DNA of 64,000 bases, from positions 1 through 64,000 of the forward strand of contig CAVVEU010000039.1 of the NCBI GenBank assembly GCA_963747235.1, written 5' to 3'. A program made the translations under genes and the position numbers. The notes under the pieces are model-generated. The model ran no database searches and was not told where the DNA came from. It worked only from the letters and a program-made list of their open reading frames with translations. Numbering within the stretch: the first letter of the stretch is position 1; each line of letters opens with the position of its first letter. This DNA is from an uncultured Candidatus Rokubacteria bacterium (lineage in GTDB: Bacteria; Methylomirabilota; Methylomirabilia; Rokubacteriales; CSP1-6). Shown in pieces: positions 1 through 64,000 of this stretch.

Positions 1-484
1 GGCCAGGCAGGTGGGGGAAGCGCTCCGCGCGCGAGGAGTCCGCCCGCGCTTACTGGATCTGGCCCCGGTGCAGCGCTTCCTGTTCGACGGCCAGCCGGGC
101 GACGAGGCCGAACAGGACATCGTCCACCGGGCGCTTGCCTACGCCGCCAAGCTGCTGACCGAGGCCGGCGTGTCGGTCATCGTGGACGCGACGGCCGCGC
201 GGCGCGCCTGGCGCGAGGCGGCCCGCACGCTGATCCCGTGCTTCGCGGAGATCCAGCTCCTGTGTCCGACCGACGTGTGCCTCGAGCGGGAGCGCGCCGT
301 TCGCTGGGGTCTGACGTTCGAGGCGCCGGCGCCGGCGGCCGCGAAGCCCGACATCGCCTTCGACTACGAAGAGGCGACGCGGCCCGATCTGGCGATCAGG
401 ACCGATGTGTACGACGCGCACGCCGCCGCGGAGCGAGTGCTGGCGATGATCCGGCATCTGGCCGGCGGACCGATCCGCACGTGA
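1..484 (+). CDS. Adenylyl-sulfate kinase-like P-loop kinase (5' end outside window)
   Basis: VSVIVDATAARRAWR...EIQLLCPTDVCLERE...YEE...PDLAI resembles the APS-kinase/AAA_33 C-terminal half; the P-loop is not in the window. Confidence 0.6.
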   Translation, partial: ARQVGEALRARGVRPRLLDLAPVQRFLFDGQPGDEAEQDIVHRALAYAAKLLTEAGVSVIVDATAARRAWREAARTLIPCFAEIQLLCPTDVCLERERAVRWGLTFEAPAPAAAKPDIAFDYEEATRPDLAIRTDVYDAHAAAERVLAMIRHLAGGPIRT

Positions 485-870
485 GCCCCATGCGCCGTCG
501 CGTGCTGGTGGTCGACGATGAGGATGATTTCCTGGCCACCTACGAGCGGCTGCTCCGGCGCCAGGGCTATGACGTGGTCACCGCCATCTCCCGCGCCGCG
601 GGCCTGGCGGCGCTGGCCGGCGAGCGGCCCCATCTCGTCATCTCGGATCTCCGGCTGCCGGATGGCGACGGCCTCGATGTGGTCCGGGCCGCCCGCGGTG
701 CACGCGAGCCGGTGCCGGTCATCGTGGTCACCGGCTATCCGTCCGACGAGACCCGGCGGGCCGCTCTCGCGGCGGGCGCCACCACCTTTCTCTCCAAGCC
801 GTTCGCGGCGGCGGTGCTGCTGGCGGCGATTCGCTCCATCGTGGATGGGGCGGGGGCGCGGGCGACATGA
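481..870 (+). CDS. Single-domain response regulator (receiver only)
   Basis: RVLVVDDE, LVISDLRLPDGDG, VIVVTGY, FLSKPF; GTG481 or ATG490 start. Confidence 0.9.
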   Translation: MSPMRRRVLVVDDEDDFLATYERLLRRQGYDVVTAISRAAGLAALAGERPHLVISDLRLPDGDGLDVVRAARGAREPVPVIVVTGYPSDETRRAALAAGATTFLSKPFAAAVLLAAIRSIVDGAGARAT

Positions 871-959
871 TCGAGCCGATTCGTGACAACTGGGTCATCG
901 CGCTCGGCATCGTCGTCCTGCTGGGTGCCCTGCTCGTCTGGTGGAGGAGCCGGCGCTGA
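867..959 (+). CDS. 30-aa single-pass membrane microprotein MIEPIRDNWVIALGIVVLLGALLVWWRSRR
   Basis: ATGA overlap with the receiver stop codon; hydrophobic helix plus basic tail; too short for the ORF track. Confidence 0.6.
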   Translation: MIEPIRDNWVIALGIVVLLGALLVWWRSRR

Positions 960-976
960 GCCGGCAGGAGGATGCC

Positions 977-1435
977 ATGCAGGTCAAGGAGCTGATGAGC
1001 CGCGAGCTGGTGACGATCGGACCAAGGGAATCGTGCCTGGACGCGGTCGTGCGAATGCAGCGGGCGCGTGTCCGGCATCTCCCGGTGGTGAACCGGGACG
1101 GCACGCTGGTCGGGATCGTCACGGACCGTGATCTCCGCCACCACCTGTTCACCCCGCGAGTCTTCGAGGGGCTGGGCTCGACCCCCATGGACGTCCTTCT
1201 CGACGGGGTGCACGTTGCGGAGATCATGTCCACCGACGTCGTGACGGTCGGGGCCGGTGCGACGCTCGGCGCCGCCGCGGATACCATGCGGAAGCATCGG
1301 GTGGGGTCCCTTCCGGCCATGGAGAACGGCCGGATGGTCGGCATCGTCACGGAAGTGGATATTCTCCGCCAGCTCGGCCAGGCCAACGTCACGGCCGTCC
1401 CGGAGTGCGCGGAGGTGATCGTCTCCTACCCATGA
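977..1435 (+). CDS. CBS-pair protein
   Basis: GGAGG RBS; VRHLPVV..GIVTDRDL and VGSLPAM..GIVTEVDIL. Confidence 0.9.
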   Translation: MQVKELMSRELVTIGPRESCLDAVVRMQRARVRHLPVVNRDGTLVGIVTDRDLRHHLFTPRVFEGLGSTPMDVLLDGVHVAEIMSTDVVTVGAGATLGAAADTMRKHRVGSLPAMENGRMVGIVTEVDILRQLGQANVTAVPECAEVIVSYP

Positions 1436-1478
1436 CCGTCTCCGGCCGGCGCCCGCCGAGCCCACTGGGATGGTATCC

Positions 1479-2071: not shown

Positions 2072-4702
2072 GTGAGCGACACGTCCACGGCGGCCGCTGC
2101 CGAGGCGGGGCTCACGACGGTCGAGGCCCAGCGCCGCCTGAGCCAGCTCGGCCCCAATCGCGTGGCCGACCGGGGCGAGGTGCCGCTGTGGCAGCTGGCC
2201 CTCGCCCAGTTCCGGAGCCTCGTGGTCTTGCTGCTGCTCGCCGCCTCCGGCATCGCGTGGGCGCTGGGCGAGCGGGCCGAGGCCGTGGCGATCCTCGGCG
2301 CGCTCGTGCTGAACGCGGCCATCGGCTTCGGCTCCGAGTGGCGCGCCCGGGTGTCGCTGGCCAGGCTGCGCGCGCTCGCGGTGCCGCAGGCGCTGGTCCG
2401 GCGCGACGGGTACGTGACCCAGATCGCTACCGCGGAGCTCGTACCGGGGGACGTGCTCGTCCTGGACGCGGGGGCGGCGGTGCCCGCGGACGCGCGGCTG
2501 CTGCGAGCCGCGGCCCTGCAGGTGAACGAATCCACCTTGACCGGCGAGAGCGCGGCGGTCTGGAAGGACGCCGCCGCGACGTCGGGGCCCGACACCCCGC
2601 TGGCCGAGCGCGCGAACATGCTCTACCTCGGCACCACGATCCTCTCCGGGAGCGCGGTGGCTCTCGTCACCGCCACCGGGGCCGCGACGGAGCTCGGCCG
2701 GATCGGACGGCTGGTGGCCTCCGCCGGCTCGCGGACGACGCCGCTCGAGCGCCAGGTGGAGTCACTGGGCCGGCGACTGATCGTGCTGGCGGTCGGCATC
2801 TGCGCGGTGGTGGGTCTCGCCGGCATCCTGCACGGGGAGCCGGTCGGGCTGATGCTGGAGACGGCGGTCAGCCTCGCCGTCGCCGCCGTGCCGGAGGGCC
2901 TGCCGGCGGTGGTCTCGCTCGCGCTGGCCGCCGGGCTCTGGCGGCTCGCGCGCCGCGGCGCGCTCGTCCGGCGCCTGGCCGCGGTGGAGACGCTCGGCTC
3001 GGCCACCGTGATCTGCGCGGACAAGACCGGCACCATGACCGAGAACCAGATGACGGTAACGTCGCTTCGATACGGCGGCCGTCGGGTCACGGTCGGCGGT
3101 GGCGGGCGCTCGACCGCAGGAAGCTTCGTGGACGAAGCCGGCCGCATCGTCACCCCGCTCGCCGATCCGCATCTCACGCTGCTGCTCACCGCGGCGGCGC
3201 TGTGCAACGACGCGAGCCTCCGGCCCGCGCCCGACGGGCTTCATCTCGTTGGCGATCCGACCGAGTCGGCCCTGCTGGTGGCGGCAGTCAAGGCCGGGCT
3301 CGATCCGGCCGACCTGGCACGGGCCTGGCCCCGTCACCGTGAGATCCCGTTCGATCCGGTGACGCGCATGATGGCGACCTTCCACGTCATGCCGGGCGCC
3401 GGGCCCGTGCTCCTGGTCAAGGGCGCCCCCAGCGTGATCGTGGAGCGGGTGACGCGCTCTCACACGGTCGCGGGCCCGGTCGCGCTGAGCGACGAGGATC
3501 GGGTCCGCCTGCTCGAGGAGAACCGGGACCTGGCTCGCGAGGGATTCCGTGTGCTCGCGTTCGCGTGGCGCCCGGTCCCCTCGATCGAGGACGCGCCCGT
3601 GGAGGAGCTCACGTTCCTCGGCCTCGTCGGATTCGTGGATCCGGTGCGTTCGGGGGTGGCGGACGCCATCGCGGCCTGTCGAGAGGCCGGCATCCGCACG
3701 ATCATGCTCACCGGCGACCAGGAGCTCACCGCCCTGACGGTGGGGCGTCAGCTCGGCCTCGAGCCGGAGGCGATCCGGAGCCGGGTCAGTCCGGAGGGCA
3801 AGCTCGAGCTGGTGGCCGAGCTGCAGGCCCGGGGTGAGATCGTGGCCATGACTGGGGACGGGGTCAACGATGCGCCGGCGCTCGTCCGCGCGGATATCGG
3901 CGTGGCGATGGGCCGGCGCGGCACCGACGTGGCACGCGAGTCGGCCGATCTGGTGCTCATCGACGACAACTTCGCGACCATCGTCCTGGCCGTGAAGGAA
4001 GGGCGCGTGATCTACGCCAATCTCCGCAAGGTCATCCGCTTCCTCTTCTCGTGCAACCTCTCCGAGATCCTCACCATCTTCGTGGCCATCCTGCTCGGCT
4101 ATCCCACGCCGCTCCTGCCGCTGCAGATCCTGTGGGTGAACCTGGTCACCGACATCCTGCCCGCGACCGCCCTGATCCGGGATCCGGCCGACGACGACGT
4201 CATGGGACGCCCCCCGCGCGATCCCGCCGAGGCGCTCGTCACCTGGCGGTCAGGCGCGCGCATCCTGGGCGAGGGCGCGCTGCTGGCGGCCGGGGTGCTC
4301 AGCACCTATCTCTGGACCGTGTGGCGGGAGGGCCCCGGCCCGTCGGCCAGCACGATGGCCTTCATGGCGCTGGTTCTGATCCATCCGTTCCAGGCCATGA
4401 GCTGTCGGTCGGAGCGTCTCAACTGGTGGCAACTCAGACCCAATCCATGGATCCCGCTGTCGCTGGTGGCCCTCTTCGCGCTGCAGTGGCTCGCGATTAC
4501 ATGGGGGCCGCTGGCCCGCCTGCTCGGCACGAAGCCCCTGACCGGCGTTGACTGGCTCGTCCTGGCGCTGGGTGTGCTGTGGCCGGTGGCCCTGCTGGAG
4601 GCCCTGAAGGCCTGGGGCCGCTTCACCACATTGAGGCCCGCCTACCCCACCGTGGTGACCCAGGATGAGCCGCAATCCTCGAGATCACCGCGAAAGGATT
4701 GA
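2072..4702 (+). CDS. Cation-transporting P-type ATPase (type IIA, Ca2+/CtpF-like)
   Basis: TGES, VPEGLP, DKTGT, GDPTE, MTGDGVNDAPAL, ILWVNLVTD. Confidence 0.92.
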   Translation: MSDTSTAAAAEAGLTTVEAQRRLSQLGPNRVADRGEVPLWQLALAQFRSLVVLLLLAASGIAWALGERAEAVAILGALVLNAAIGFGSEWRARVSLARLRALAVPQALVRRDGYVTQIATAELVPGDVLVLDAGAAVPADARLLRAAALQVNESTLTGESAAVWKDAAATSGPDTPLAERANMLYLGTTILSGSAVALVTATGAATELGRIGRLVASAGSRTTPLERQVESLGRRLIVLAVGICAVVGLAGILHGEPVGLMLETAVSLAVAAVPEGLPAVVSLALAAGLWRLARRGALVRRLAAVETLGSATVICADKTGTMTENQMTVTSLRYGGRRVTVGGGGRSTAGSFVDEAGRIVTPLADPHLTLLLTAAALCNDASLRPAPDGLHLVGDPTESALLVAAVKAGLDPADLARAWPRHREIPFDPVTRMMATFHVMPGAGPVLLVKGAPSVIVERVTRSHTVAGPVALSDEDRVRLLEENRDLAREGFRVLAFAWRPVPSIEDAPVEELTFLGLVGFVDPVRSGVADAIAACREAGIRTIMLTGDQELTALTVGRQLGLEPEAIRSRVSPEGKLELVAELQARGEIVAMTGDGVNDAPALVRADIGVAMGRRGTDVARESADLVLIDDNFATIVLAVKEGRVIYANLRKVIRFLFSCNLSEILTIFVAILLGYPTPLLPLQILWVNLVTDILPATALIRDPADDDVMGRPPRDPAEALVTWRSGARILGEGALLAAGVLSTYLWTVWREGPGPSASTMAFMALVLIHPFQAMSCRSERLNWWQLRPNPWIPLSLVALFALQWLAITWGPLARLLGTKPLTGVDWLVLALGVLWPVALLEALKAWGRFTTLRPAYPTVVTQDEPQSSRSPRKD

Positions 4703-4728
4703 GCTCGCGCGTTGGCACCCGCGTTGCT
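4613..4728 (+). promoter_or_regulatory. Sigma-54 promoter module P1
   Basis: UAS TGGGGCCGCTTCACCACA 4613-4630 and TGAGGCCCGCCTACCCCA 4632-4649; TGGCAC-CCGCG-TTGCT 4713-4728. Confidence 0.85.
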
Positions 4729-4741: not shown

Positions 4742-5140
4742 ATGACTACCAACGTGGAACCCATCAAGATCACCGGGCTGGATCGTGATCCGCTGCGCGG
4801 CCGGGCCACGCGGCTCATGACCGAGGCCCTCGCGAAGCTCACCGTCGCGCCGGTCAAGGGACAGGCCTCGTTCTTCGACGACAACGGGCCCAAGGGCGGC
4901 CGGGCCATGCGATGCGCCCTGACGGTGCGGCTGCCGTTCCGGCCGACCATCCGCGTCGAGCGAAGCGCCGTGACGCCCCGCCTCGCCTTCGACGCGGCCT
5001 TCGCCGTGCTCGAGCGCCAGCTCGAGCGGTACCGCGAGCGGGATCGTGACAGCAAGCGGCATCCCAAGAAGTACTTCGCGGCGCGCCGGGTGCTCGCCGG
5101 GGAGGCGCCGGCGCCGCGAAAGCGGGCGCGGCGCGGTTAA
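4742..5140 (+). CDS. HPF/RaiA-family ribosome-associated hibernation protein (divergent)
   Basis: DDNGPKGG..RCALTV..IRVE..PRLAFDAAFAVLERQLERYR resembles the S30AE fold; basic tail. Confidence 0.7.
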   Translation: MTTNVEPIKITGLDRDPLRGRATRLMTEALAKLTVAPVKGQASFFDDNGPKGGRAMRCALTVRLPFRPTIRVERSAVTPRLAFDAAFAVLERQLERYRERDRDSKRHPKKYFAARRVLAGEAPAPRKRARRG

Positions 5141-5153: not shown

Positions 5154-6281
5154 ATGGATCTGCATGCCCGGCTGACCGCGCTCGGCAAGATTGACCGCGC
5201 CCCGGCCCCGGTGGTGACGGCCTACCTGAATACCCGGTGGGCGGACGAGCACCAGCGCGACCGCGTCCGGATCTTCCTCAAGAATCATCTGGCAGAAGCC
5301 CGGCGCGCCCCTGGCCCGCGCCCGTCCGAGGCCGACTTGGACTGGGTGGAAGCCCAGGGCGAGGCACTCCTCAACCAGGCGATGATGCCCGAGACCAGCG
5401 GGGTCGCCCTCTTCGCCTGCGAGGCGCTCGGGCTCCGCGAGCTCATTTCGAGCCGGGTTCCGTTCGAGAACACGTTCGCGGTGGCCGAGACGCCGCTGCT
5501 GCGTCCGCTGCTGGAGCTCGGCGAGCAGGCACCGTCCACGCTGGTGGTGTTCATCGACACGGAGACAGCGCGGCTCGTCGCGCTCACCTCCGCGGGGGCG
5601 GGAGAGGAGGTCGCGCTCGTGGCCGACGTGCCCGGCCATCACGGTCGGGGCGGCTGGACGCAGATGGCGCAGTCCCGATACCAGCGGCACACCCAGGACC
5701 ATCGGGCCCGGCATTTCGAGGCCGTGGTGGGGAGCCTGATCGGGCTGATGGAAGGCCATGGCTTGCGGTCGATCGTCCTGGCGGGTGAGCCCCGCAACGT
5801 CGCTGTGTTCCGCAAGGAGCTGCCGCCGCGCCTCGCCGCGTTGGTCGTCGGGACCGTGGCCGGCGCCCGGCACGAGGCCATCGGGCTGATAGTCGATCGG
5901 GCCGCCGAGTATCTCCCGCACGTGCAGGGGCAGCGGGAGGCCGAGGGCGTCGACGCCGCGTTGACCGCGGCGGCCAAGCGGGGGAAGGGGAGCGCAGGCC
6001 TCGAGGCCACCCTCAGCGCCGTCAACCGAGGGGCGGTCCACCGGCTCTACCTCCTCAAGGGATGGAGCGCGCCCGGCCGTCGCTGCCGGGGGTGCGGGAC
6101 ACTCGGGGGTGGGCTCACCTGGACCTGCCCGACCTGCGCCGGCGAGGTGCTGATGGTGGAGCTGGGCGAGGCGATGGCCGAGCGCGTCGCCGCCGCCGGC
6201 GGCGCCGTGGAGACCATCGCGGTTCACCAGCCCCTGGCGGTGGCCGGCGGCATCGCGGCCGAGCTGCGCTATCCCCTGTGA
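5154..6281 (+). CDS. Bacterial archaeo-eukaryotic release factor-like protein (baeRF/Balon-like) with C-terminal zinc ribbon
   Basis: VVTAYLN, GVALFAC, PLLRPL, GHHGRGGWTQMAQSRYQRH, IVLAG, CRGCG..CPTC, ending GGIAAELRY. Confidence 0.85.
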   Translation: MDLHARLTALGKIDRAPAPVVTAYLNTRWADEHQRDRVRIFLKNHLAEARRAPGPRPSEADLDWVEAQGEALLNQAMMPETSGVALFACEALGLRELISSRVPFENTFAVAETPLLRPLLELGEQAPSTLVVFIDTETARLVALTSAGAGEEVALVADVPGHHGRGGWTQMAQSRYQRHTQDHRARHFEAVVGSLIGLMEGHGLRSIVLAGEPRNVAVFRKELPPRLAALVVGTVAGARHEAIGLIVDRAAEYLPHVQGQREAEGVDAALTAAAKRGKGSAGLEATLSAVNRGAVHRLYLLKGWSAPGRRCRGCGTLGGGLTWTCPTCAGEVLMVELGEAMAERVAAAGGAVETIAVHQPLAVAGGIAAELRYPL

Positions 6282-6470
6282 GGCCGGCAGTGGCGCGGGG
6301 TCCCGCTGAAGAGAGCGAAGACCCGCGCCTCTCCCTGGCGCTGTCGCTCGCGAGCGAGGCCGGACGCCTCGCCGTCGCCGGCCGGCCGGATCTGGACGTG
6401 CAGTGGAAGGGCCGCTGGAAGGGCCCCGGCGATCGAGTCACCACGGCCGAGCTTCGGATCCCCAGCGGGT
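6278..6470 (+). pseudogene. N-terminal remnant of an inositol-monophosphatase-family gene
   Basis: LSLALSLASEAGRLA..LDVQWK..GPGDRVTTAELRI, then similarity is lost. Confidence 0.45.
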
Positions 6471-6543
6471 GCATCACGACCCCGGCCGGTCGTCCGTTCT
6501 TTCCTTTCGACGTGGCGGGGCATCGGCGCGGCGCGGACCTTCG

Positions 6544-7139
6544 ATGAATCTCGTGATCGAATCGATCGGCGGTACCCCGGTCGCGCACCGGCGGATCGAG
6601 CTCGTGGAGCGCAAGGGGCTCGGCCACCCCGACACCATCTGCGACTCTGTGGTGGAGGCGGCCTCCGTCGCACTCGGCCGTCTGTACCTCGAGCGCGCCG
6701 GTGTCATCGCGCACCAACATCGACAAGGCGCTGCTGGTGGCCGGCCAGTGCGTCCTCGGCCGAGGATGCCGACTCCGGCCAGGTAGGGCGTGGCAATCGC
6801 GCCAACGGGCTCATCGCCTTCTCGCGTCCCACCGGGGGCGAGGCCACCGCGGGCAAGAATCCCGCCGCGCACGCCGGGAAGGTCTACAGCGTCCTGAGTC
6901 ATCGGCTGGCGCGGCTCATCCACGACCGCTGCCCGGCGCTCCTCGAGGTCTACGTGCACCTCGTCGTCCGGATTGGCGAGCCGGTCGATCGACCGTGGAC
7001 AGGTGTCCAGGTGCGCCTGCCCGCCGGCGCCGAGCTTGGAGAGGTCGAGGGGGAGATCCACCGGGTCGTGGAGGCCGAGCTGGCCCGCCTGCCCGCGTTC
7101 CGGGCGGCACTGATCCGCGGCGCACACCCGGTCTGCTGA
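6544..7139 (+). pseudogene. Archaeal-type S-adenosylmethionine synthetase, large internal deletion plus frameshifts
   Basis: IELVERKGLGHPDTICD, NIDKALLVAG, DSGQVGRGNRANGLI, EATAGKNP..HAGKVYSVL, across frames; about 200 aa versus about 400 expected. Confidence 0.8.
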
Positions 7140-7148
7140 CCGGCGGAG

Positions 7149-7256
7149 CGGGGTACGGCTGTCCCACCTGAGGCGAGCGCGCTGTCCCGTCGGAGAGAGC
7201 CGGACCCTCGAATCGGCTTTCTTTTCGGTGGCCTGCGAGAGGGTATGTCGCTTGCA
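7149..7256 (+). promoter_or_regulatory. Sigma-54 promoter module P2 (ybaK-like/groEL operon)
   Basis: UAS CGGGGTACGGCTGTCCCA 7149-7166 plus half-site TGAGGC at 7169; GGGTAT-GTCGC-TTGCA 7241-7256. Confidence 0.65.
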
Positions 7257-7271
7257 AGCACATCGAGCGTC

Positions 7272-7697
7272 ATGCACGAGCGACTGGAAGAGCTCCTCGG
7301 GGTCCGGGGCATCCGCTACAAGCTGGTGCCGCACCTGGAAGCCTTCACCGCGCAGGAAGAAGCGGCCAACGCTCACCGGCTCAAGGGCCTGATCGGCCGC
7401 GGCGAGATCCGTCTGGCCAGCGTCGAGGAGATACTGGCGGGCTTTCCCGGCTGCGCGCTCGGCGCGACCCCGCCGTTCGGCCGGCTCTTCGGGATCCCCA
7501 CCGTGGTGGACGAGTCGCTGGTCGAGCAGCGCGACATCGTCCTGCCGTCGGGGGACCATCGGACCGCGATCCGGATGCGCGCGACGGACTACGTGACGCT
7601 GGCCGAGGCCCGATCGGGCTATTTCGCGTTCCACGAATCGGAGGAGTTTCCGGTGCACCCACATCCCCGCGCCCCGGTGACGCGGCCGAGCCCCTGA
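7272..7697 (+). CDS. YbaK/ProX aminoacyl-tRNA deacylase-like protein, probable internal deletion
   Basis: [39 protein letters not shown]; the central Lys-containing segment appears absent. Confidence 0.7.
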
Positions 7698-7716: not shown

Positions 7717-9342
<1,626 letters not shown>

Positions 9343-9345
9343 GCC

Positions 9346-9999
9346 GTGCTCGTCAAGGACGTCATGCAGCCGCACCCGGTGACCGCGACCCCCGAGACGC
9401 GCCTGCCCCAGCTGGTCCGGCTGCTGCAGCGTCGCGGCTTCCGCCACCTCCCGGTCCTGGACGGGGGCAAGCTCGTCGGCATCGTCTCCGACCGCGACGT
9501 CAAGCAGTCCATGGCCTCGGCGGCCTCGGCGGCGGAGGGGCGTGAGCGCGACCGGCTCCTCGACGAGCTCACCGCGGGACAGATCATGGCGCGCGCGGTG
9601 GTCACGATCGGCCCGACGGTCGGCGTCGATGAGGCGGCCCGGCTCATGGCGACGCGGAAGATCAGCGCGCTGCCGGTCACCGAGGGAGACCGGCTCGTCG
9701 GCATCGTGACCGAGACCGACGTGCTCCAGCTCTTCGTGCGGGCCATGGGAGTGCTCGAGCCGTCGAGTCGCGTGGACGTGACCCTGCGCGACCAGACCGC
9801 CGGACTGGGCGAGGTCGTGCGGACGGTCGAGGAGGCCGGCAGCCGGATCGCCAGTGTGATGACGCTGGCGATGCCGGGCGGAGAGCGGGAAGTGATGCTG
9901 CGCCTCGCCACGATCAATCCGGGGCCGGCGGTGAAGGCGCTCGAGGCGAAGGGCTACGTGGTGAGGGATGCCGGTCGCGGCGCGCCCGCGGCGCCGTGA
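9346..9999 (+). CDS. CBS+ACT protein (AcuB-like)
   Basis: Two CBS repeats followed by SSRVDV...DQTAGLGEV ACT-like domain. Confidence 0.85.
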   Translation: MLVKDVMQPHPVTATPETRLPQLVRLLQRRGFRHLPVLDGGKLVGIVSDRDVKQSMASAASAAEGRERDRLLDELTAGQIMARAVVTIGPTVGVDEAARLMATRKISALPVTEGDRLVGIVTETDVLQLFVRAMGVLEPSSRVDVTLRDQTAGLGEVVRTVEEAGSRIASVMTLAMPGGEREVMLRLATINPGPAVKALEAKGYVVRDAGRGAPAAP

Positions 10000-11624: not shown

Positions 11625-11677
11625 ATGCGGAGGGGCGGGGCACGGATGCAGTGGCCGGTACTCGAAGGGAGGCTGCC

Positions 11678-11991: not shown

Positions 11992-12041
11992 CACCAGATC
12001 AACGTCGAGATCCAGGCGATGAAGACCGCGACAGGAGGACG

Positions 12042-53230: not shown

Positions 53231-53305
53231 GCAGGGAGCGGATCCCGTCAAGATGCGAGGCGGCGACCCGCCGTTCCCGGGGTATCATCTCGGCCACGGG
53301 GTGCC

Positions 53306-56074: not shown

Positions 56075-56082
56075 GCCGCGAG

Positions 56083-58237
56083 ATCAGCCCCCCGGGGCTG
56101 TCGACCGGGAAGGTCAGCGTGAACGTGCTGCCCTTGCCGACCTCGGAGCGGACGTCCAGCGTCCCGTGGTGATCGTGCACGATGCCGTGGCTGATCGACA
56201 GACCGAGCCCGGTCCCTTCCGGCTTCGTGGTGAAGAACGGATCGAAGATCTTCGGCAGGAGGCTCGGCGGGAATCCCGGAGCCGGTATCGCGCACCGCGA
56301 GGCGCACCGAGCGGGCGGCGGCCAGATGGCTGGTCTCGATCGTGATCTCGCCGCCCTCGGGCATGGAGCCCCGGGCGTTGGTGAGCAGGTTGAGCAGCAC
56401 CTGCCCGATCGCGTTGGCGTCGGCCACGATGGTGGGCATCGTCTCGTCCAGCTTCGTCGTGACCTGGACCCGCGCCCGGCTCATGTCCTTGCGGACGAGC
56501 TGGACGATCTCCTCCGTGACCTGGTTCAGGTTCACGGGGCCGCGGGTGCCGGACGACTGGCGGGCGAAGGACAGGAGCCCCTGGGTGATCGTGGCCACCC
56601 GCCGGGCGTGGCGCAGGATGACCTCGAGGTCCTTCCGCACCTCGTCGGGGAGCCCCACTTCGTCGGCCTCGAGCATCATGACCTCGACACGCGAGGTGAT
56701 GATGCCGATGGGATTGTTGATCTCGTGGGCGATGCCGGCCGACAGGGTGCCCAGCGCGGCCAGCTTGTCGGCCTGGCGGGCGGCCTTCTGGAACGCCACC
56801 CGCTCGCTGATGTCGGTGACGAAGGCGATGGCGCGCACGCCCTCGTCGGTCTCGACGTAGCTCAGGCTCACCTCCACCGGGAACTCGGTTCCGTCCTTCT
56901 TGAGCGCGGCCAGGTCGAGCCCCCGGCCCATCGAGCGGATCCGCGGCGCCGCCATGTAGGTGCCGCGATGGGCGACGTGCCGCTCGCGGAGCGGGGCCGG
57001 GATGAGGGCCTCGACCGGCTGCCCGATCAGCTCGGCCTGCGTGTAGCCGAACATCGCCTCGGCCCTGGCGTTGACCAGCACGATGCGGCCCGCCGCATCG
57101 GTGACCACGATGCTCTCGGTCACGGAGGCGAGGAGCGCCCGGGACGTGGCCTCGCTGCGGCGCAGCGACTCCTCGGCCACCCGGCGCGCGGAGACGTCGC
57201 GCGCCACGATGGACGCGCCCACCGACCTGGTCGGCGTCGTCGCGGATCGGCGAGATCGTCATGAACACGTGGATCCGCCGCCCCGACCCCGTCATCTGCT
57301 CGGCTTCGATCCGCTCGACCCGCTGCTCCCGCAGGACGCGGGTCAGGCTGGCCGCGACCTCGTCGTTGTGCCGGTCCGGCCCCAGGATGTCGATCGGCAG
57401 GCCGGTGACCTCCTCTCCCCGATGCTCGTAGAGCCGCTCCGCGCCCGCATTCCAGGTGAGCACGCGTCCGTCGGGCCCCAGCCCGATGATCGCGTCGTCG
57501 GACGACTGGACGATCGACGTGAGCAGCGCGCTCGTCTGCTCGTACTCGACCACCTGGCTCCGCAGCGCGTCCCGGGTCGCCCGGATCTCGCCCGCGCGCC
57601 GTCGATACTCGACGAGGACGACCACGAGCAGGCCGAGCGTCACCGCGGCCAGCCCGGCCAGCCCGAGGAACACGCGGTGAGCCTGCCGCGCATACCGGGT
57701 CGATTGCTCGGCCTGGATCTGGCGCTCCTCCGCCTTCATGGTGGCGACGGCGGAGCGAATCTGCTCCATGAGCCGCAGGCCGCGTCCGGTCAGCAGGCGC
57801 TGGACCGCGACGTCGGTACGCCGCTCGCGGCCGAGCTGGACCGTGTCGCGCAGCTCGCCGAGCTTGTCCGTGACGAGCGGCTCCAGGGTGTCGACGTGCC
57901 GCCGCTGGCGCACATTCCCCTCGGTCAAGCCGCGGAGGGTCCGCAGGTGGCTCGCCGCGGAGTCGAACGCGGTGAGATACGGCGCGAGATAGCGCTCGTC
58001 GCCGGTCATCAGGAAGCCGCGCTGTCCGGTCTCGGCATCGGTCACCGCCGAGAGGACTCCATCCAGCTCACCGAGGACCTGGCCGGTCTGACGGGCCGTC
58101 TGGTACTGTTCGGTGAGATCGCGCGCGCCGAGCGCGATGACCGCAATGGCCAGCACGAGGGCGGCGGCCACGGAGAACGCAACGCTCGTGCGGTTGTGGA
58201 GAAGCCAGGGGAGCACGCCGCTGGGCGGTTGAGCCAT
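56083..58237 (-). CDS. Sensor histidine kinase CHASE3-PAS-PAS-HisKA-HATPase, NtrB/AtoS-type (frameshifts near 57225 and 56265)
   Basis: [66 protein letters not shown]. Confidence 0.9.
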
Positions 58238-58279: not shown

Positions 58280-58384
58280 TGGGGCGGCGGCGCCTCAGCG
58301 GGGCACGGCTGCCGCGCGAGGCGGCCGGGTCCAGTGCTGTAACGGGTTGAATGTATGGCAATTCTAGCTGGCACCTCGGTTGCA
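58280..58384 (+). promoter_or_regulatory. Sigma-54 promoter module P13
   Basis: UAS TGGGGCGGCGGCGCCTCA 58280-58297 and CGGGGCACGGCTGCCGCG 58299-58316; IHF-like (minus ATTCAACCCGTTA) 58340-58352; TGGCAC-CTCGG-TTGCA 58369-58384. Confidence 0.92.
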
Positions 58385-58408
58385 ATTCTGCCCCGCCAGG
58401 AGGCGCAC

Positions 58409-58849
58409 ATGTTCTATCGCATCGTGGTGGCGACGGACTTCTCGGATTGCGCGAAGGACGCGTTGGAACTGGCCAAGCGGCTCGCGGCGGCCCCGGGTAG
58501 CGAGTTGATCCTGACGCATGTGCTGACCGAGGTGCCCCTGTACGGGGAGGGGATCCTCAATATCGAGACCGCGCGCCAGGTCCGGGACGGCGCCCGCAAG
58601 TGGGCGGAGGCTGCTCTGGAGGAACTGGTGAGCAAGGCGCGCGGGGCGGGGCTCGGCGCCCGGGCGGCGATCCGCACGGGGGTTCCTCATCAGGAGATCG
58701 TGGCGCTGGCCGGGGACGAGCGGGCCGACCTCATCGTGATCGGCACCCATGGCCGCGGTGGGATCGCCCGCGCGCTCCTGGGCAGCGTGGCCGACCGCGT
58801 CGTGCGGCTCGCGCCGTGCCCCGTGCTCACGGTTCGCGAGCCGGCTTGA
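58409..58849 (+). CDS. Universal stress protein
   Basis: VATDFS..LIVIGTHGRGG..LGSVAD..CPVLTV. Confidence 0.93.
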   Translation: MFYRIVVATDFSDCAKDALELAKRLAAAPGSELILTHVLTEVPLYGEGILNIETARQVRDGARKWAEAALEELVSKARGAGLGARAAIRTGVPHQEIVALAGDERADLIVIGTHGRGGIARALLGSVADRVVRLAPCPVLTVREPA

Positions 58850-58859
58850 GTCGCCGGCG

Positions 58860-59282
58860 ATGCGGACCGAGGTGAAAGGGGCGGGCGGATCGGTCGGCGA
58901 CTGGATGAGCAAGGCGCCGATGGCGGTCCGCGAGGACACACCGATCCGGGACGCGGTGTCGCTCATGCAGGGCGCCGAGGTGCGCCACCTCCTAGTCCGG
59001 GACGGCCCGGTGCTGACGGGCATCCTCTCCAGCCGGGACCTGGGGCGTCTCGTCACGCGCGATCTGGGTTCGCCTCTTCTGGCCGGTCCGGTCGGGTCCA
59101 TCATGAGCGAGGGCCCGGTGAGCGTGGCGCCCGAGACGCCGCTGGTCACCGCGGCGCGGCTGCTGCTCGAGCAGCGGATCGGCGCCCTGCCGGTCCGTGA
59201 CGGCGAGCGGATCGTCGGGATCTTCACGGTGCCCGACGCGCTCGAGGCGCTCCTCGCGATCGCCGAGGCCTCGGGCGCGTGA
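58860..59282 (+). CDS. CBS-pair protein
   Basis: VRHLLV..GILSSRDL; IGALPV..GIFTVPD. Confidence 0.88.
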   Translation: MRTEVKGAGGSVGDWMSKAPMAVREDTPIRDAVSLMQGAEVRHLLVRDGPVLTGILSSRDLGRLVTRDLGSPLLAGPVGSIMSEGPVSVAPETPLVTAARLLLEQRIGALPVRDGERIVGIFTVPDALEALLAIAEASGA

Positions 59283-61373
59283 GCGGCCGCTCGCTCGCTC
59301 CGTTCCTCGATCCCGCCAGCGTGGCGGTGATCGGCGCGTCCCGCGATCCGTTCAAGGTGGGCGGCAGCGTCGTGGCCAACCTGCGCTCGGCGGGCTTTCG
59401 CGGGCGGATCATCCCGATCAACGCCCGCGCGGACTCGGTGCAGGGCCTGCCCGCGCTGCGCTCGCTCCTCGACGTCGAGGGCCCGGTGGACCTCGCGGTG
59501 ATCGCGGTGCCCGCCGCGGACGTCTTGCCCGCGCTCAAGCAGTGCGCGGCCAAGCAGGTCGGGGGCGCGGTGGTGATCTCGGCCGGCTTCCGGGAGACCG
59601 GCGGCGACGGCGTGCGGCGCGAGGCCGAGCTGCGCGAGTGGCTGCGCGACCAGCCGATCCGGGTGCTCGGCCCCAATTGCCTCGGCTGGATCCGGCCGAC
59701 CCGCCGGCTCAACGTCACGTTCGCGCCCGGGATGCCCGAGCCGGGCGGCATCGCCTTCATCACCCACTCGGGCGCGCTGGCGGTGGCGATCCTGGACTGG
59801 TCGCGCGACCGCCGGGTCGGCTTCTCGCTCTTCGCCTCGCTCGGCAACCAGGCCGACCTGAACGAGAGCGATCTCCTCGATGCGGTGGCCGCCGATCCGG
59901 AGACCCGGGTGATCGCCTGCTACCTCGAAGGCGTCGCCGACGGCCGGCGCTTCCTCGGCGCCCTTCGCCGCGCGGCCGCCGTGAAGCCGGTCGTGCTCCT
60001 GAAGGCGGGCCGCTCCGCGGAGGGGGCGCGCGCCGTGTCGTCCCATACCGGCGCGCTCGCGGGCTCCGATCGGGCGTTCGACGCGGCCGTCCGGCAGGCG
60101 GGCGCGCTCCGGGTGGACACGGTGGAGGGGCTGTTCGACATCGCGCGCGGCCTGGCCAGCCAGCCGCTGCCGCGCGGCCGTCGCCTGGTCGTGGTGACCA
60201 ACGGCGGCGGGCTCGGCATCGTGGCCACCGACGCGGCGCGGGCCGCCGGCCTCACCGTCGCGCCGCTCGACGAGGCCGTCCGCGCGCGCCTGGCCGAGGG
60301 CCTGCCCGCCACCGCGGGGCTCGGCAACCCGGTGGACCTGGTGGGGGACGCCGACGCGCGCCGTTACGGCCACGCGCTGCACACCCTCGGGAGCGACAGC
60401 GCCGACGCGATGCTGGTGCTCCTCACGCCGCAGGCCGCGACCGACGCCGCGAGCATCGCCCGCACGATCGCGGGCGCGACGCGCGGCTGGCCCATCCCGG
60501 TCGCGGCCGCCTTCGTGGGCGGGACGCGCGTGGCGCCGGGGGTGCGGGTGCTCGAGGAAGCCGGCATCCCGTGCTATGCCTTCCCCGAGTCGGCGGTCGA
60601 GACGCTGGCCGGAATGGCGCGGCTGGCGTCGCGACGGGCCGGCCTGGCCGTGCCCCCCACGCGCACGGTCGACCCGGCCCGCGCGCGCGTCTGGCTGGCG
60701 GGGCTCGGCCCCGTGGCGGGGCGGCAGCTCGGCATGCCGGAGCTGGCTCCGCTGCTCGACGCCTACGGCATCCCGCGGCTCGCCGCGCGCGTGGCGGCGG
60801 GCGCCGCCGACGCCGCGGCCGTCGCGGAGGAGATCGGGTTCCCGGTCGCGCTCAAGATCGTGTCGCCGGACATCACGCACAAGACGGAGGTGGGCGGCGT
60901 GGCCCTGGGGCTCCGGGACGCTCGCGCCGTGCGCGAAGCCGCCGAGGCCATGCTCCGACGGGTCGCGATCGAGCGGCCGGCGGCGGCGATCCGGGGGCTC
61001 CTGGTCGAGACCATGGCCGCCGCCGGGAAGGAGCTCCTGCTGGGCGGCGTGCGCGACGATCAGTTCGGGCCCCTCGTGATGGTCGGGTTCGGCGGGATCT
61101 ACGTCGAGGTCTTCTCGGATACCACGGCGCGCCTCGCTCCGGTATCCTCGGTCCGAGGCCCTGGCGATGCTCGACGAGCTCAAGATGGCGCCGCTGCTTC
61201 GCGGCACGCGGGGCGAGCCGCCGGTGGATCGTGACGCGCTGGCCGCGGTCGTCGGCCGCTTCTCGCAGCTCCTGGTGGATCTCCCCGAGCTGGCGGAGAT
61301 CGAGATCAACCCCTTGACGGTCGGGCCCTCCGGCGCGGTGGCGGTGGACGCGCGGGCCCGGCTCAGCCGATAG
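59279..61373 (+). CDS. ADP-forming acetate--CoA ligase (fused alpha/beta), frameshift near 61150
   Basis: VAVIGAS, LGPNCLG, SHTGALAGS, TNGGG, NPVDL, HKTEVGGV, EIEINPL, VDAR. Confidence 0.9.
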
Positions 61374-61382
61374 GAGGCACGG

Positions 61383-61517
61383 ATGGGCATCCGGAAGAGC
61401 ATGGGCAAGAACAAGAAGTCGAAGAAGCGGACGGAGGCGGTGGCGGTCAAGCGGGACGAGATCCAGCGCAAGGCGGCGATGGACCGCAGCAAGCGCCGCC
61501 CGCAGGGGATGAGGTAG
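61383..61517 (+). CDS. 44-aa highly basic microprotein
   Basis: AGGAGG RBS; MGIRKSMGKNKKSKKRTEAVAVKRDEIQRKAAMDRSKRRPQGMR. Confidence 0.7.
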   Translation: MGIRKSMGKNKKSKKRTEAVAVKRDEIQRKAAMDRSKRRPQGMR

Positions 61518-61524
61518 CCGCGCG

Positions 61525-61993
61525 GTGGCCGCTCGAGACGGGCTTTCGCCGCGTCGTGCTGGGGATGGACGGGTCCGCGCACTCCCGGCGGGCGGTGGCC
61601 TTCCTGACCCGGATGAAGCCGCCCCGCGGCGGGCGCGTGACGGTCGTCCGCGTCGTCGAGCCGGTGCGGGTGCCGTCGATGCCGCTCGTCCCGTCCGGCA
61701 TGCGGGCGCAGATCGCGGGGCAGGCGGAGGCGGCGAACCGGAGTCTGGCCGCGGGGGCCCGCCGGCAGGTCGAGGCCGCCGCGGCCACGCTCGCCCGGGC
61801 GGGCTGGCGGACGCGCGCGGTCGTGCGCAGCGGCGTGCCGCTGGCCGAGCTGCTCGCGGCGGTGCGCGCGGAGCGGGCCGACGTGCTCGTGCTGGGCGCG
61901 CGGGGCGCCGGCGCGGTGACCCATTTCCTGCTCGGGAGCGTGGCGGAGGCCGCGCTGAAGCAGGCGCCGGTCGAGGTCCTGATCGTCAAGTGA
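61525..61993 (+). CDS. Universal stress protein (start uncertain)
   Basis: VVLGMDGS..VLVLGARG..LLGSVAE..VLIVK. Confidence 0.88.
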
Positions 61994-62018
61994 CGGGCAA
62001 TCCACGAGGAGATCGAGC

Positions 62019-62588
62019 ATGAGACTGAACGAGATCCTGTTCCCGACCGACTTCTCGCCCGCGTCGGAGGCGGCGGGACGCATCGCGCGGGAGATGGCGG
62101 TGCAGGCCGGCGCGCGCCTCCACGTGCTCCACGTGGTGCCCCCGGTCACCGATCCGTCGCTGCCCGCCGAGCACCTGGCGCGGGCCGGCCGCGCGCTGGC
62201 CGACGGGCTCCGCGTGGAGACCGCGCTGCTCAGCGGGTGGGCCGGCCGGAACATCGTGGACTACGCGCGCGAGAAGCGCATCGATCTCATCGTGGTGGGC
62301 ACCCACGGCCGGACCGGGATCAGCCACGCGATCCTCGGCAGCGTGGCCGAGACGGTGGTGCGCCTGGCGCCCTGCCTCGTGCTGACCGTGCCCGCCTCGC
62401 TCCTCGCGGAGCGGAGCGCGGTCCCCGTCGCGCCGATCGTCGCCGCGGTGTCCCCGCGTCCGTGCCTGGTGTGCGGCAAGGCGAGCGACGAGCTGATCTG
62501 CGAGGGCTGCCGGACCCGCATCCGGGGCGAGGCGCTCGAGCAGAAGCGCGACGCCGAGCGGCCCGGCCACCGGGGGCTGCCGGTATGA
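62019..62588 (+). CDS. Universal stress protein with C-terminal CxxC-x8-CxxC zinc finger
   Basis: ILFPTDFS..VGTHGRTG..GSVAE, then CLVCG..ICEGC. Confidence 0.88.
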   Translation: MRLNEILFPTDFSPASEAAGRIAREMAVQAGARLHVLHVVPPVTDPSLPAEHLARAGRALADGLRVETALLSGWAGRNIVDYAREKRIDLIVVGTHGRTGISHAILGSVAETVVRLAPCLVLTVPASLLAERSAVPVAPIVAAVSPRPCLVCGKASDELICEGCRTRIRGEALEQKRDAERPGHRGLPV

Positions 62589-62731
62589 CCGCCCCCGAGC
62601 CCCGCGAGAAGGACCGCGCGAACGCGCCGGAGGAGCATCCGAGGGGCGCGCTCGCCTTCATCCTGGTCTACCTGGTCATCATCGTGGCGTTCTGGGTCAA
62701 CACCTACCTGCGGCTCTGGATAAGGGGCTAG
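62585..62731 (+). CDS. cbaD: ba3-type cytochrome oxidase subunit IIa
   Basis: PRGALAFILVYLVIIVAFW..Y..RG directly before subunit II. Confidence 0.75.
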   Translation: MTAPEPREKDRANAPEEHPRGALAFILVYLVIIVAFWVNTYLRLWIRG

Positions 62732-62734
62732 GCC

Positions 62735-63223
62735 ATGAAGCAGGGCGCGACCGTGTATCTCTACGAGCTGGCCTGGATCCTGCCGAGCATCGCCATCCCG
62801 GTCGGCATGCTCGCGGCGCTGCTGGTCACCGCCTTCGGCGCCGGCATCCACGTGCCGAGCGTCGCGGGCCGCATCGATCCGACCCGGGTCACCGAGACCG
62901 CGCCGTTCGACCAGCCCGGCGTCGTGCAGACCGGGCCGGTGAGCTACGAGGTGCGGATGATCGGGCAGATCTGGGCCTTCACCCCGAACGAGATCCGCGT
63001 GCCGGTGGGCTCGACCGTGACCTTCGTGGCCACCAGCAAGGACGTCATCCACGGCCTCTTCATCCCGGGCGCCAACGTGAACGTCATGCTGATCCCCGGG
63101 CAGATCTCGCGCGTCACCGCGCGGTTCGATCGGGCGGGGGAGTTCTTCATGGCCTGTCACGAGTACTGCGGCATCGCGCACCACACCATGGGCGGCAAGG
63201 TCATCGTGGAGCCCCGGTCATGA
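62735..63223 (+). CDS. cbaB: ba3-type cytochrome c oxidase subunit II (CuA)
   Basis: Single TM, DVIHG, CHEYCGIAHHTM. Confidence 0.92.
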   Translation: MKQGATVYLYELAWILPSIAIPVGMLAALLVTAFGAGIHVPSVAGRIDPTRVTETAPFDQPGVVQTGPVSYEVRMIGQIWAFTPNEIRVPVGSTVTFVATSKDVIHGLFIPGANVNVMLIPGQISRVTARFDRAGEFFMACHEYCGIAHHTMGGKVIVEPRS

Positions 63224-64000
63224 GCCAGGACACCGCGAGCGATCCGGAGAAGCGGCTCACCGGCGCGCACATGCTGGTGGCCAACGTGGCCCTGCTCGGC
63301 GGCATCGTGACCGGGCTGCTGCAGGGGCTGGAGCACGCCGGCTTCGAGTTCCCGGCGAGCGAGTACTTCCTGCAGTCCGTACTACCACAGCGTGAGCATG
63401 CACGGCGTCCTCAACGTGCTGGTGTGGACCACCTTCTTCATCGCGGGCTTCCTGCCCTTCATCAGCGCGCGCGCCTACGGCATCCCGCTGGCCAGCCCGC
63501 GGCTCGGGTGGCTCACCTTCTGGCTGATGCTGGCCGGCCTGCTCATCGCGGCGGTCCCGCTGGCCGGCAACGCGGCGACGGTCATGTTCACCTTCTACGC
63601 CCCGCTCCAGGCGCACTGGGCCTTCTACGTGGGCCTCACCCTGGTGGTGGTGGGCACGTGGCTCATCACGCTGCGCCTGGCGCTGAGCCAGCGGGCGTGG
63701 CGCGCCGGGCATCCCGACGCGCGCACGCCGCTGGCCGCGTTCATGTCGCTGGTGACGATGGCGATGTGGACGCTCGCCTCGATCGGGCTGGCCGCCTCGA
63801 TGCTCTTCATGCTGATCCCGTGGTCGCTCGGGCTCGTGGCGGGGACCGACCCGCTGCTCACGCGCACGCTCTTCTGGCTCACCGGCCATCCCATCGTCTA
63901 CTTCTGGCTGCTCCCCGCGTACGTCTCCTGGTACACGCTGGTGCCGCGGCAGGCGGGCGGCCGGCTCTTCAGCGATCCGATGGCGCGGGGCTCCTTCCTG
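63220..64000 (+). CDS. cbaA: ba3-type (B-family) heme-copper oxidase subunit I, runs off window; frameshift near 63375
   Basis: HGVLNVLVWTTFF, FTFYAPL, RTLFWLTGHPIVYFWLLPAY. Confidence 0.9.
   Translation, partial: MSQDTASDPEKRLTGAHMLVANVALLGGIVTGLLQGLEHAGFEFPASEYFLQSVLPQREHARRPQRAGVDHLLHRGLPALHQRARLRHPAGQPAARVAHLLADAGRPAHRGGPAGRQRGDGHVHLLRPAPGALGLLRGPHPGGGGHVAHHAAPGAEPAGVARRASRRAHAAGRVHVAGDDGDVDARLDRAGRLDALHADPVVARARGGDRPAAHAHALLAHRPSHRLLLAAPRVRLLVHAGAAAGGRPALQRSDGAGLLP

Follow-up and report, generated by a model that had tools for sequence, protein, structure and literature searches.

A candidate sigma-54 regulon for growth arrest in a gene island of an uncultured Rokubacteria bacterium

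Do the stress, repair and ribosome-silencing genes crowded into one stretch of an uncultured bacterial genome answer to a single switch, and which switch would that be? The stretch, hereafter the window, is positions 1–64,000 of contig C39 of a metagenome-assembled genome (MAG) that comprises 5.57 Mb in 42 contigs and is 88% complete; the window makes up 1.15% of that genome. The host belongs to the Rokubacteria (Methylomirabilota), widespread, uncultured soil bacteria, and the nearest relatives of its aeRF1-fold factor (baeRF) come from MAGs of that group. The original prediction had taken the window for an equivalent of the mycobacterial DosR regulon, packed into one island in a diderm lineage but wired to sigma-54. 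Our analysis indicates that the cluster is probably one sigma-54 regulon for growth arrest. In what follows, C-numbers denote contigs of the host MAG (G000), and L-numbers (L001–L011 and so on) denote stretches mostly from related MAGs.

Clustering and a shared promoter signature

Because the GC content of the window is 71%, raw lists of open reading frames (ORFs) were mostly noise, with many spurious ORFs. Genes were called with our own codon-model script trained on the window, and about 66 ORFs were scanned against Pfam. Eight USP genes were identified (15427–15807, 16018–16446, 17000–17446, 27012–27461, 50644–51117, 58409–58849, 61556–61993 and 62019–62588), together with eight CBS proteins, as predicted for both families: seven stand-alone CBS pairs (941–1435, 9346–9999, 19880–20299, 22316–22756, 26531–26995, 49535–49963 and 58860–59282) and an M50-CBS protease (20320–21435, plus strand). 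In the whole genome, 22 USP matches merged to 18 genes, a count that includes two matches with the same scores on C22 and C29, probably duplicated contigs, and 39 CBS domain matches fell in about 20 proteins. The window accounts for 10 of the USP matches (8 genes) and 15 of the CBS matches (8 proteins), giving a Poisson P of about 1e-10 for each family. Searches with window proteins by tblastn (E ≤ 1e-10, at least 60% cover) found Hsp20, the HPF-like factor, baeRF, RtcB, archease, the M50-CBS protease, BON, the PNPOx-like protein, the ADP-forming acetyl-CoA synthetase and YkuD in single copy in the genome. With this enrichment and these many single-copy members, the packing of the genes into one island is borne out.

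The sigma-54 consensus TGGCAC-N5-TTGC, with at most one mismatch, was found at 14 sites in the window, compared with 2.78 expected, and none of 100 shuffles reached 14. Genome-wide, there are 224 such sites, 38 of them exact; the window holds 14 and 7, respectively, and the Poisson P for the exact sites is 4e-7. Twelve plus-strand sites lie 15–205 nt ahead of start codons with good ribosome-binding sites. A minus-strand site at 34922 faces the OmpA gene and overlaps its called start by 3 nt, and the site at 3315, inside an ATPase gene, is probably a chance match. At the promoter of the HPF-like gene, the −24/−12 letters are conserved in L001–L004, whereas the spacer varies. The genome also encodes rpoN (Sigma54_DBD at C8:726117–726590, E 4.5e-62).

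Upstream of the promoters, mismatch-tolerant k-mer counting detected TGGGGCG in 12 of 13 sequences, compared with 24% of the background; exact inverted-repeat enumeration showed weak enrichments only. The k-mer belongs to an 18-bp palindrome, TGGGGCG-N4-CGCCCCA, situated 68–107 nt upstream of 13 of the 14 window sites. Scored between −60 and −110 with up to 3 mismatches in 14 positions, the palindrome was detected at 13 of the 14 sites, whereas each of three control offsets gave 0 of 14; since the consensus was derived from the same 13 window sites, these offset controls and the relatives are the only independent tests. Loose thresholds (two promoter and four palindrome mismatches) yielded 231 mostly random matches and were dropped for the stricter ones. 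Outside the window, the palindrome accompanied 5 of 200 promoter-like sites (controls, 1–3 of 200), namely C31:144746, C31:118244, C24:727209, C28:71060 and C42:14892.

In the relatives L001–L011, which were not used to define the motif, the palindrome was detected at 12 of 20 scorable sites, compared with 2 of 41 controls. The baeRF loci of 29 further genomes, L041 from the unpublished genome G029 among them, include 17 with a sigma-54 site (position weight matrix score of at least 12 bits), 12 of which also have the palindrome. The distances between palindrome and promoter cluster at about 69, 80, 90, 100 and 107 nt, a phase of about 10 nt; the 14 own sites gave a Rayleigh R of 0.82 and the 12 sites in relatives one of 0.90, and 0 of 5000 random sets matched this phasing. 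The DNA between the two elements has an identity of 0.29 between sites, which equals expectation, and the signature is therefore not a dispersed repeat. An A/T-richer stretch about 28–30 nt upstream of the −24 element (58330–58368, and at other promoters) gives a small information peak and might be an IHF-type bending site.

The promoters, the common palindrome, rpoN and an NtrC-type activator at the island edge (described below) make the sigma-54 wiring of the island well supported at the sequence level, as the original prediction had proposed. Judged by strand and spacing only, operons starting at the 13 promoters could cover about 50 of the roughly 66 window genes.

Island extent, candidate activator and trigger

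The island exceeds the window on both sides. The final 4.3 kb of C31 is colinear with L003 (84%) and L004 (79%), both of which continue unbroken into the first genes of the window; C31 therefore joins C39. On this piece of C31, the NtrC-type activator lies together with a sigma-54 promoter, two USPs and one gene each of the APH-like and APS-kinase-like kinds. Beyond the activator on the left lie unrelated genes (an SNF symporter, LysE and hydrolases), which set the left border of the island. To the right of the window, C39:64001–75878 (L012) encodes a CBS-NapC/NirT fusion, NrfA, cytochromes c, a multihaem-Rieske protein and cytochrome b. C42:1–8689 overlaps C39:67203–75878 at 96.2% identity, and C42 adds 13.7 kb that encodes an MtrB/PioB porin, a TPR protein, a PAS-LuxR regulator with a sigma-54 promoter upstream, a CBS pair, citrate synthase and POR. 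Together these pieces form a cluster of about 94 kb (4.4 + 75.9 + 13.7 kb), most of which is the window. As to synteny with related MAGs, which the original prediction had named as a check, L003 and L004 are colinear with the left edge, and both the HPF-baeRF adjacency and the palindrome recur in relatives.

The activator on C31 is the candidate for the protein that binds the palindrome. It combines REC and Sigma54_activat domains (Pfam) with GAFTGA in its translation, HTH_8 is present in the intact L003 copy, and the palindrome-bearing promoter at C31:144746 follows immediately. Orthologs with 70–90% identity lie beside USPs and island genes in L003, L004, L007 and L009. Among 121 sampled genomes of the phylum, 38 encode baeRF10 (32 of 73 in family f1, 4 of 8 in f2 and 1 of 39 in the other families together). 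Activators were counted as ortholog-grade at a best E below 1e-135, clearly separated from the paralogues, which score about 1e-128 or weaker; 35 of the 73 f1 genomes have such an activator. baeRF is present in 27 of the 35 with it and in 5 of the 38 without it, a table that overstates the link between the two genes because kin are not independent. Both genes reside on one contig, 2–90 kb apart, in 13 of the 27 f1 genomes. The unpublished genomes G029, G058 and G101 are counted here, as is, outside f1, the unpublished G047.

The window itself encodes a sensor kinase with the architecture CHASE3-PAS-PAS-HisKA-HATPase (55735–58237, minus strand, Pfam). It is the best host match of the kinase that stands beside the activator in L007, with 42% and 64% identity in two pieces; the next matches are at 30–34%. 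In the right flank, a PAS-LuxR(GerE) regulator without REC (L044:5996–6634, equal to C42:13995–14633) is located behind a sigma-54 promoter with a palindrome, and the CBS pair, citrate synthase and POR come after it. This protein may regulate the island at a second tier.

From these components, a single circuit can be proposed. The kinase would phosphorylate the activator (REC, AAA+ with GAFTGA, HTH_8), which would bind the 18-bp palindromes 68–107 nt upstream of the −24/−12 promoters, on one helix face, and open sigma-54 RNA polymerase at the 13 window promoters and at least three more in the flanks. Among the products, short HPF and the Balon-like baeRF would silence and protect ribosomes, perhaps with the CBS-pair and USP proteins as nucleotide sensors; RtcB-archease, PCMT, Hsp20 and the GroEL paralogue would repair RNA and protein; and the HU and DksA paralogues, the L,D-transpeptidase, the M15 peptidase, BON and OmpA would remodel nucleoid, RNA polymerase and envelope. 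The Ca-type and MgtA-type ATPases may keep the ion balance, and PFK, PEP synthase, ADP-forming acetate-CoA ligase, ba3 oxidase and NrfA (just outside the window) may move energy metabolism to low-energy or low-oxygen routes.

As to what sets off such a circuit, limitation of oxygen or energy is a trigger to which we give about an even chance. The ba3 oxidase, NrfA with CBS-NapC, the formate/nitrite transporter, the ADP-forming acetate-CoA ligase and POR all suggest it, and the two nearest known systems, lxa and NmpR, are both induced by low oxygen in the published accounts available to us. The same regulon with another trigger, such as starvation, stationary phase, drying, or envelope or osmotic stress sensed through the extracytoplasmic CHASE3 domain, is nonetheless a serious contender, if a little short of even; the likeness to DosR would then reflect a common growth-arrest toolkit only. 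The kinase has CHASE3 besides PAS, and the Pfam scan identified no GAF or haem motif in it. Many island genes are generic stress genes (Hsp20, GroEL, PCMT, BON, OmpA and MgtA), and Balon operons are described beside heat-, osmotic-, acid- and drug-stress genes (PMC10901736, as far as the text available to us goes). Six RNA sequencing runs, with shares of 0.08–0.13 of sampled words, were set aside as giving no evidence of expression or habitat.

We consider it unlikely that, with genuine promoters, the protein binding the palindrome is not the C31 activator but another sigma-54 activator of the genome, or several of them. This alternative draws on three of the points that weigh against a single regulon under the C31 activator. 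First, Sigma54_activat has 27 matches in the genome, which amounts to about 20 other sigma-54 activators. Second, three f2 genomes contain baeRF, two of them with the palindrome, and no activator above about 51% identity was found in them. Third, the host activator has a 1-nt insertion relative to L003 and L004 that puts its C-terminal HTH out of frame (L013:9330–9460). The window kinase, too, reads in at least three frames, and the switch would be broken in the host strain if the frame changes in activator and kinase are real and not assembly errors. On the same side stand the dependence among kin noted above, the fact that the palindrome consensus is taken from the very sites in which it is counted, and about 16 of the roughly 66 window genes with no detectable sigma-54 site upstream. 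No site was detected for the YbaK-GroEL-CBS2 genes, USP 3, ATPase 1, the formate/nitrite transporter, PLD or the minus-strand genes other than the OmpA unit, and a search for weaker sites accompanied by the palindrome was negative upstream of GroEL, USP 3, ATPase 1, PLD and the minus-strand genes. By contrast, the C31 activator adjoins the island in the host, L003, L004, L007 and L009, a palindrome promoter comes directly after it, and its presence correlates with that of baeRF in f1 (27/35 vs 5/38), the two having a contig in common in 13 genomes.

Finally, the notion that the motifs are dispersed repeat copies or chance matches in GC-rich DNA, and that the genes are clustered without common control, is close to refuted: GC-rich palindromes are common, and the 8-mer core, with one mismatch, turns up in about 24% of random 245-nt segments, but shuffles give 2.8 sites and not 14, offset controls give 0 of 14, the flanks are unrelated, the sites lie just ahead of start codons, −24/−12 are conserved while the spacer varies, and the distances are helically phased.

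Predicted ribosome hibernation core and remaining units

The proposed ribosome-silencing unit begins with a palindrome (4613–4630) and a sigma-54 promoter (4713–4727), together spanning 4613–4727 on the plus strand. A short HPF/RaiA-like factor with a basic tail (4742–5140, plus strand) follows and ends 14 nt upstream of baeRF, a Balon-like aeRF1-fold protein of family 10 (5154–6281, plus strand). The HPF-like protein scored 28.8 bits in Pfam (cut-off 23.7), and its family profile matched RaiA/HPF chains of the PDB at 5e-7. The baeRF matched Pfam baeRF_family10 at 1.5e-23, and a profile of 18 baeRF10 sequences matched Msmeg1130 at 2.4e-22 (residues 18–373), Rv2629 at 9.3e-12 and eRF1 at 1.3e-8. 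Family profiles were needed for these matches; with single-sequence phmmer, baeRF found only eRF1 and the HPF-like protein found nothing. The baeRF is below the NCBIfam cut-offs of Rv2629_fam (66 vs 320 bits), MSMEG_1130_fam (46 vs 480) and AOC03_06830_fam (31 vs 330). It retains a CxxC...CxxC zinc ribbon and the conserved GGW...Q..R loop. Burroughs and Aravind (2019, PMC6514570) note that a conserved glutamine is retained in family 10, and they consider this family possibly catalytic, perhaps a peptidyl hydrolase.

The HPF-like gene adjoins or is near baeRF in 18 of the 29 further loci, as well as in L001–L005, L007, L009 and L011. In the relatives, baeRF is followed by inositol monophosphatase, a LonB-like protease, RtcA and an archaeal-type SAM synthetase. 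L001, L002 and L004 hold about 5.8 kb with these four genes at the position where the window has about 1 kb of non-coding remnants (6281–7272), including a broken piece like the start of an archaeal-type SAM synthetase; the remnants are a deletion or a mis-assembly in the host MAG. baeRF is patchy even inside the genus (2 of 6 genomes), and gain and loss thus do occur. A mobile-island reading was rejected: the window showed no tRNA, no Rfam family and no integrase or transposase among its Pfam matches, and its GC profile is flat (0.68–0.74).

One CBS-pair protein matched the archaeal hibernation factors SriA–D (PDB 9ZNF, 9ZNG and 9ZNI) at 1e-17 to 4e-20. These matches are confined to a single CBS domain and are outscored by an AcuB-like protein; the likeness is offered as a lead only. 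A bolder idea, which we hold to be improbable but worth stating, is that Rokubacteria have a phylum-typical sigma-54 hibernation programme under a single activator, encoded in one island of about 94 kb, in which the CBS and USP proteins would be counterparts of archaeal Sri and HibA and would work with short HPF and a possibly catalytic zinc-ribbon baeRF10, coupling the adenylate state to ribosome silencing.

The units below are on the plus strand unless stated otherwise. At the left end, the APS-kinase-like gene (2–484), a REC-only response regulator (481–870) and the first CBS pair (941–1435) probably form the end of the operon headed by the C31:144746 promoter, given the colinearity with L003 and L004. 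P-type ATPase 1 (2072–4702) is next, and the GroEL paralogue, one of four in the genome, stands with CBS pair 2 (7717–9999) beyond baeRF; as noted above, this pair has no detected sigma-54 site. A palindrome and promoter (11609) precede a 49-aa membrane-like small ORF (11541–11827). The next unit (11886–14214; promoter 11976) contains a 97-aa ORF, a DUF308-like protein, the PNPOx-like protein (Pyridox_ox_2, 12628–13191) and a truncated AMP-binding protein. BON (×3) and two USPs follow behind a palindrome and the promoter at 14402 (14295–16446), and USP 3 stands alone at 17000–17446. CBS pair 3 and the M50-CBS protease share a unit (19754–21435; promoter 19834), as do an HU paralogue, CBS pair 4, a large YkuD L,D-transpeptidase and an M15 peptidase (21894–26342; promoter 21974), both behind palindromes. 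The YkuD protein (22753–25797, 1014 aa) has an N-terminal P-loop with weak LpxK/MeaB-like matches, followed by Scaffold, PG_binding_1 and YkuD.

CBS pair 5 and USP 4 are preceded by a palindrome and the promoter at 26462 (26364–27461). The adjoining unit (27463–33248; palindrome, promoter 27552) encodes Hsp20 (27622–28062), the isoaspartyl repair methyltransferase PCMT, an ABC/MacB protein and PEP synthase. On the minus strand, a divergent sigma-54 promoter (34922–34908) precedes an OmpA-domain protein and a Glu/Leu dehydrogenase (33233–34922), and it has a palindrome (34996–35013) in common with the plus-strand promoter at 35065. The latter heads a unit (34996–41413) of a HAD-IIB phosphatase/P-loop fusion, an MgtA-type ATPase (P-type ATPase 2, 36859–39354, over the NCBIfam cut-off), a 229-aa protein and a TPR protein. 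The fusion at the head of this operon (34950–36833) joins a Cof-type HAD-IIB phosphatase to a P-loop/HerA-like NTPase, an unusual arrangement without a clear named family. A further palindrome and promoter (41531) precede a YgaP-like protein (41596–41805), HlyD, AcrB (43078–46350), archease (46820–47248) and RtcB (47256–48725) in a unit spanning 41462–48725.

The unit at 48734–53674 (palindrome, promoter 48833) encodes a secreted repeat protein, CBS pair 6, a DksA paralogue, USP 5, PFK (51295–52239), ADH and a stand-alone cNMP-binding domain without HTH (53306–53674). Its small secreted protein (48891–49401), which matched no family, has a signal peptide, about ten tandem QDIQ(A/S)PR(G/S) repeats and a frame change, and lies directly behind one of the strongest sigma-54 promoters. 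The last unit (58280 to 64000, the window's end; palindrome, promoter 58369) contains USP 6, CBS pair 7, the ADP-forming acetate-CoA ligase, USP 7, USP 8, a 48-aa ORF and subunits II and I of a ba3 oxidase (COX2, 62735–63223; COX1 from 63392); the best solved relative of subunit I is the T. thermophilus ba3 oxidase, at about 1e-58. The window also encodes PLD, a formate/nitrite transporter and YbaK. OmpA, BON, RND/HlyD and the MtrB-like outer-membrane parts fit a diderm lineage, as was predicted.

Among the other genes named in the original prediction, Hsp20, the PNPOx-like, HPF-like and aeRF1-like proteins, archease, RtcB and the ba3 oxidase were all recovered by Pfam or profile. The CtpF-like ATPase is a P-type ATPase by Pfam and resembles type IIA (Ca-type, CtpF-like class) in NCBIfam, where it scores below the cut-offs (ATPase-IIA, 556 bits). 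A phosphofructokinase is indeed present, but it is of the PfkA type (PF00365) and not the PfkB of Rv2029c.

Several features of the assembly and its flanks deserve mention. Frame changes break AcrB (43078–46350) into at least five pieces and leave AMP-binding (13225–14620) and PFK/ADH (51295–53230) without N- or C-terminal parts, reflecting either long-read indel errors or widespread pseudogenes. Near-duplicate contigs are evident from the C42/C39 overlap and from identical promoter-like matches on C22/C29 and C5/C19, which points to strain variation or redundancy in the assembly and means that genome-wide counts are slightly inflated. The respiratory block at the right end (L012; L044:1201–3435) consists of the NrfA cytochrome c552 nitrite reductase, tri-haem and multihaem cytochromes, a Rieske fusion, cytochrome b and the porin, whose MtrB/PioB type hints at extracellular electron transfer.

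Comparison with known systems

DosR is a NarL/LuxR-type regulator that works with sigma-70, and to our knowledge a ba3 oxidase is not a member of its regulon. Rv2004c, which we take to be an APH plus P-loop-kinase counterpart of the left-end APH-like and APS-kinase-like genes, was not used in the comparison. As reviewed in PMC5309233, the DosR regulon consists of some 50 genes distributed over nine blocks and is controlled by the transcription factor DosR together with the kinases DosS and DosT, and the available part of that review names no ba3 oxidase among the members. The families it has in common with the island are USPs, CBS (Rv2626c), M50-CBS (Rv2625c), Hsp20 (HspX), P-type ATPase (Rv1997), HPF-like (Rv0079), Rv2629 (Balon), Rv2630 and RtcB (Rv2631), and DosR is under two-component control, as is proposed for the island. 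In contrast to the single island, DosR genes occupy nine blocks, and DosR has PfkB (Rv2029c) where the island has PfkA. Window USP and CBS proteins matched Rv2623 at 4e-12 and Rv2626c at 3.7e-8, both below archaeal or Thermus matches. No REC-GerE protein was found among the window ORFs by Pfam scan, the PAS-GerE protein of the flank lacks REC, and the same scan gave no GAF match in the island kinase, unlike the haem-GAF kinases DosS and DosT. Counterparts of nitroreductase, Tgs-type acyltransferase, class II RNR (NrdZ) and ferredoxin (FdxA) were absent from the Pfam matches of the scanned window ORFs. The equivalence to DosR stands for the presence and clustering of gene families, and the matches obtained here support a likeness at the family level only.

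In E. coli, RtcB expression through RtcR/rtcBA needs sigma-54 and a dedicated activator; rtcBA is a two-gene operon with a CARF-domain activator, whereas the island is multi-operon. Balon-RaiA operons place an aeRF1-fold factor next to HPF/RaiA, often with Hsp20 and RtcB nearby, in the portions available to us of Helena-Bueno et al. 2024 (PMC10901736) and Burroughs and Aravind 2019 (PMC6514570). The window baeRF resembles Balon in its HPF neighbour and in a family-profile match over the full length. It differs in belonging to family 10, which has a conserved glutamine, and in keeping a zinc ribbon; Balon, in the same sources, is without GGQ.

Closest in layout is the lxa locus of Burkholderia cenocepacia, a co-regulated cluster of about 50 genes activated by low oxygen (Sass et al. 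2013, PMC3721108). The accessible text describes six USPs, an alpha-crystallin, BON-like phospholipid-binding proteins, a cation ATPase, a sugar kinase, transporters and two-component genes, with one inverted-repeat motif at 17 intergenic points and a few satellite loci, and its authors remarked on the overlap with DosR. lxa has native GC content and a shuffled gene order in relatives, and expression and deletion data exist for it (PMC3721108). Like the island, it is a large co-located set with multiple USPs, Hsp20 and one regulatory motif in a Gram-negative soil bacterium, and a DosR-like toolkit in one co-regulated Gram-negative island under another switch is, in this respect, already in print. 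The two differ in wiring: the lxa motif is Anr/Fnr-like (TGA-N6-TCA), from which we infer a CRP/Fnr-type regulator with sigma-70, the paper naming Anr-like candidates, whereas the island has sigma-54, an NtrC-type activator and a GC palindrome. The Pfam scan of the window met only the HTH-less cNMP-binding domain as a trace of an Anr/Fnr-type regulator; no TGA-N6-TCA scan was made. The island is about twice as long as lxa, adds HPF, baeRF, RtcB, archease, many CBS-pair proteins and respiratory enzymes, and is known from sequence alone.

Closest in wiring is NmpRSTU of Myxococcus xanthus, in which an NtrC-like regulator and sigma-54 switch on a USP, a P-type ATPase and a high-affinity cbb3 oxidase under hypoxia (McAllister et al. 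2025, PMC11841059). As described in the available text, paired inverted repeats lie upstream, within about 100 nt of the sigma-54 site; the regulon has 7 promoters and 23 genes, scattered over the genome, and its input is a phosphorelay from a haem kinase (NmpU, NmpS) (PMC11841059). An NtrC-type regulator, sigma-54, USP, P-type ATPase and oxidase in a soil diderm are found in both systems, and the island activator is likened to NmpR at the level of the NtrC family only. The NmpR box, GCGCA-N5-TGCGC, differs from TGGGGCG-N4-CGCCCCA and is not the palindrome enriched in the island, although no separate scan for it was made. The NmpR genes are scattered and those of the island clustered, and, unlike in the island, no hibernation or RNA-repair genes were met in the portion of PMC11841059 available to us.

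A literature search found no description in print of such a regulon, or of growth-arrest survival, in Rokubacteria. The locus offers a complete and testable circuit, with a kinase, an activator, a phased predicted site of 18 bp, at least 16 sigma-54 promoters and about 80 target genes. We know of no larger single-activator sigma-54 regulon in one island than the one proposed here would be. The promoter and palindrome signature could be used to predict dormancy genes in metagenomes, and the 229-aa, 97-aa and 49-aa proteins and the secreted repeat protein are uncharacterised members marked for study. After DosR in mycobacteria and the Anr-like system in Burkholderia, this would be the third independent wiring of a toolkit of USP, CBS, Hsp20, P-ATPase, HPF, Balon and RtcB, from which we argue that the toolkit, and not the regulator, is the conserved unit. 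Judged by its genes and motifs, the island appears to unite an lxa-type layout with NmpR-type wiring and to add the hibernation and RNA-repair modules.

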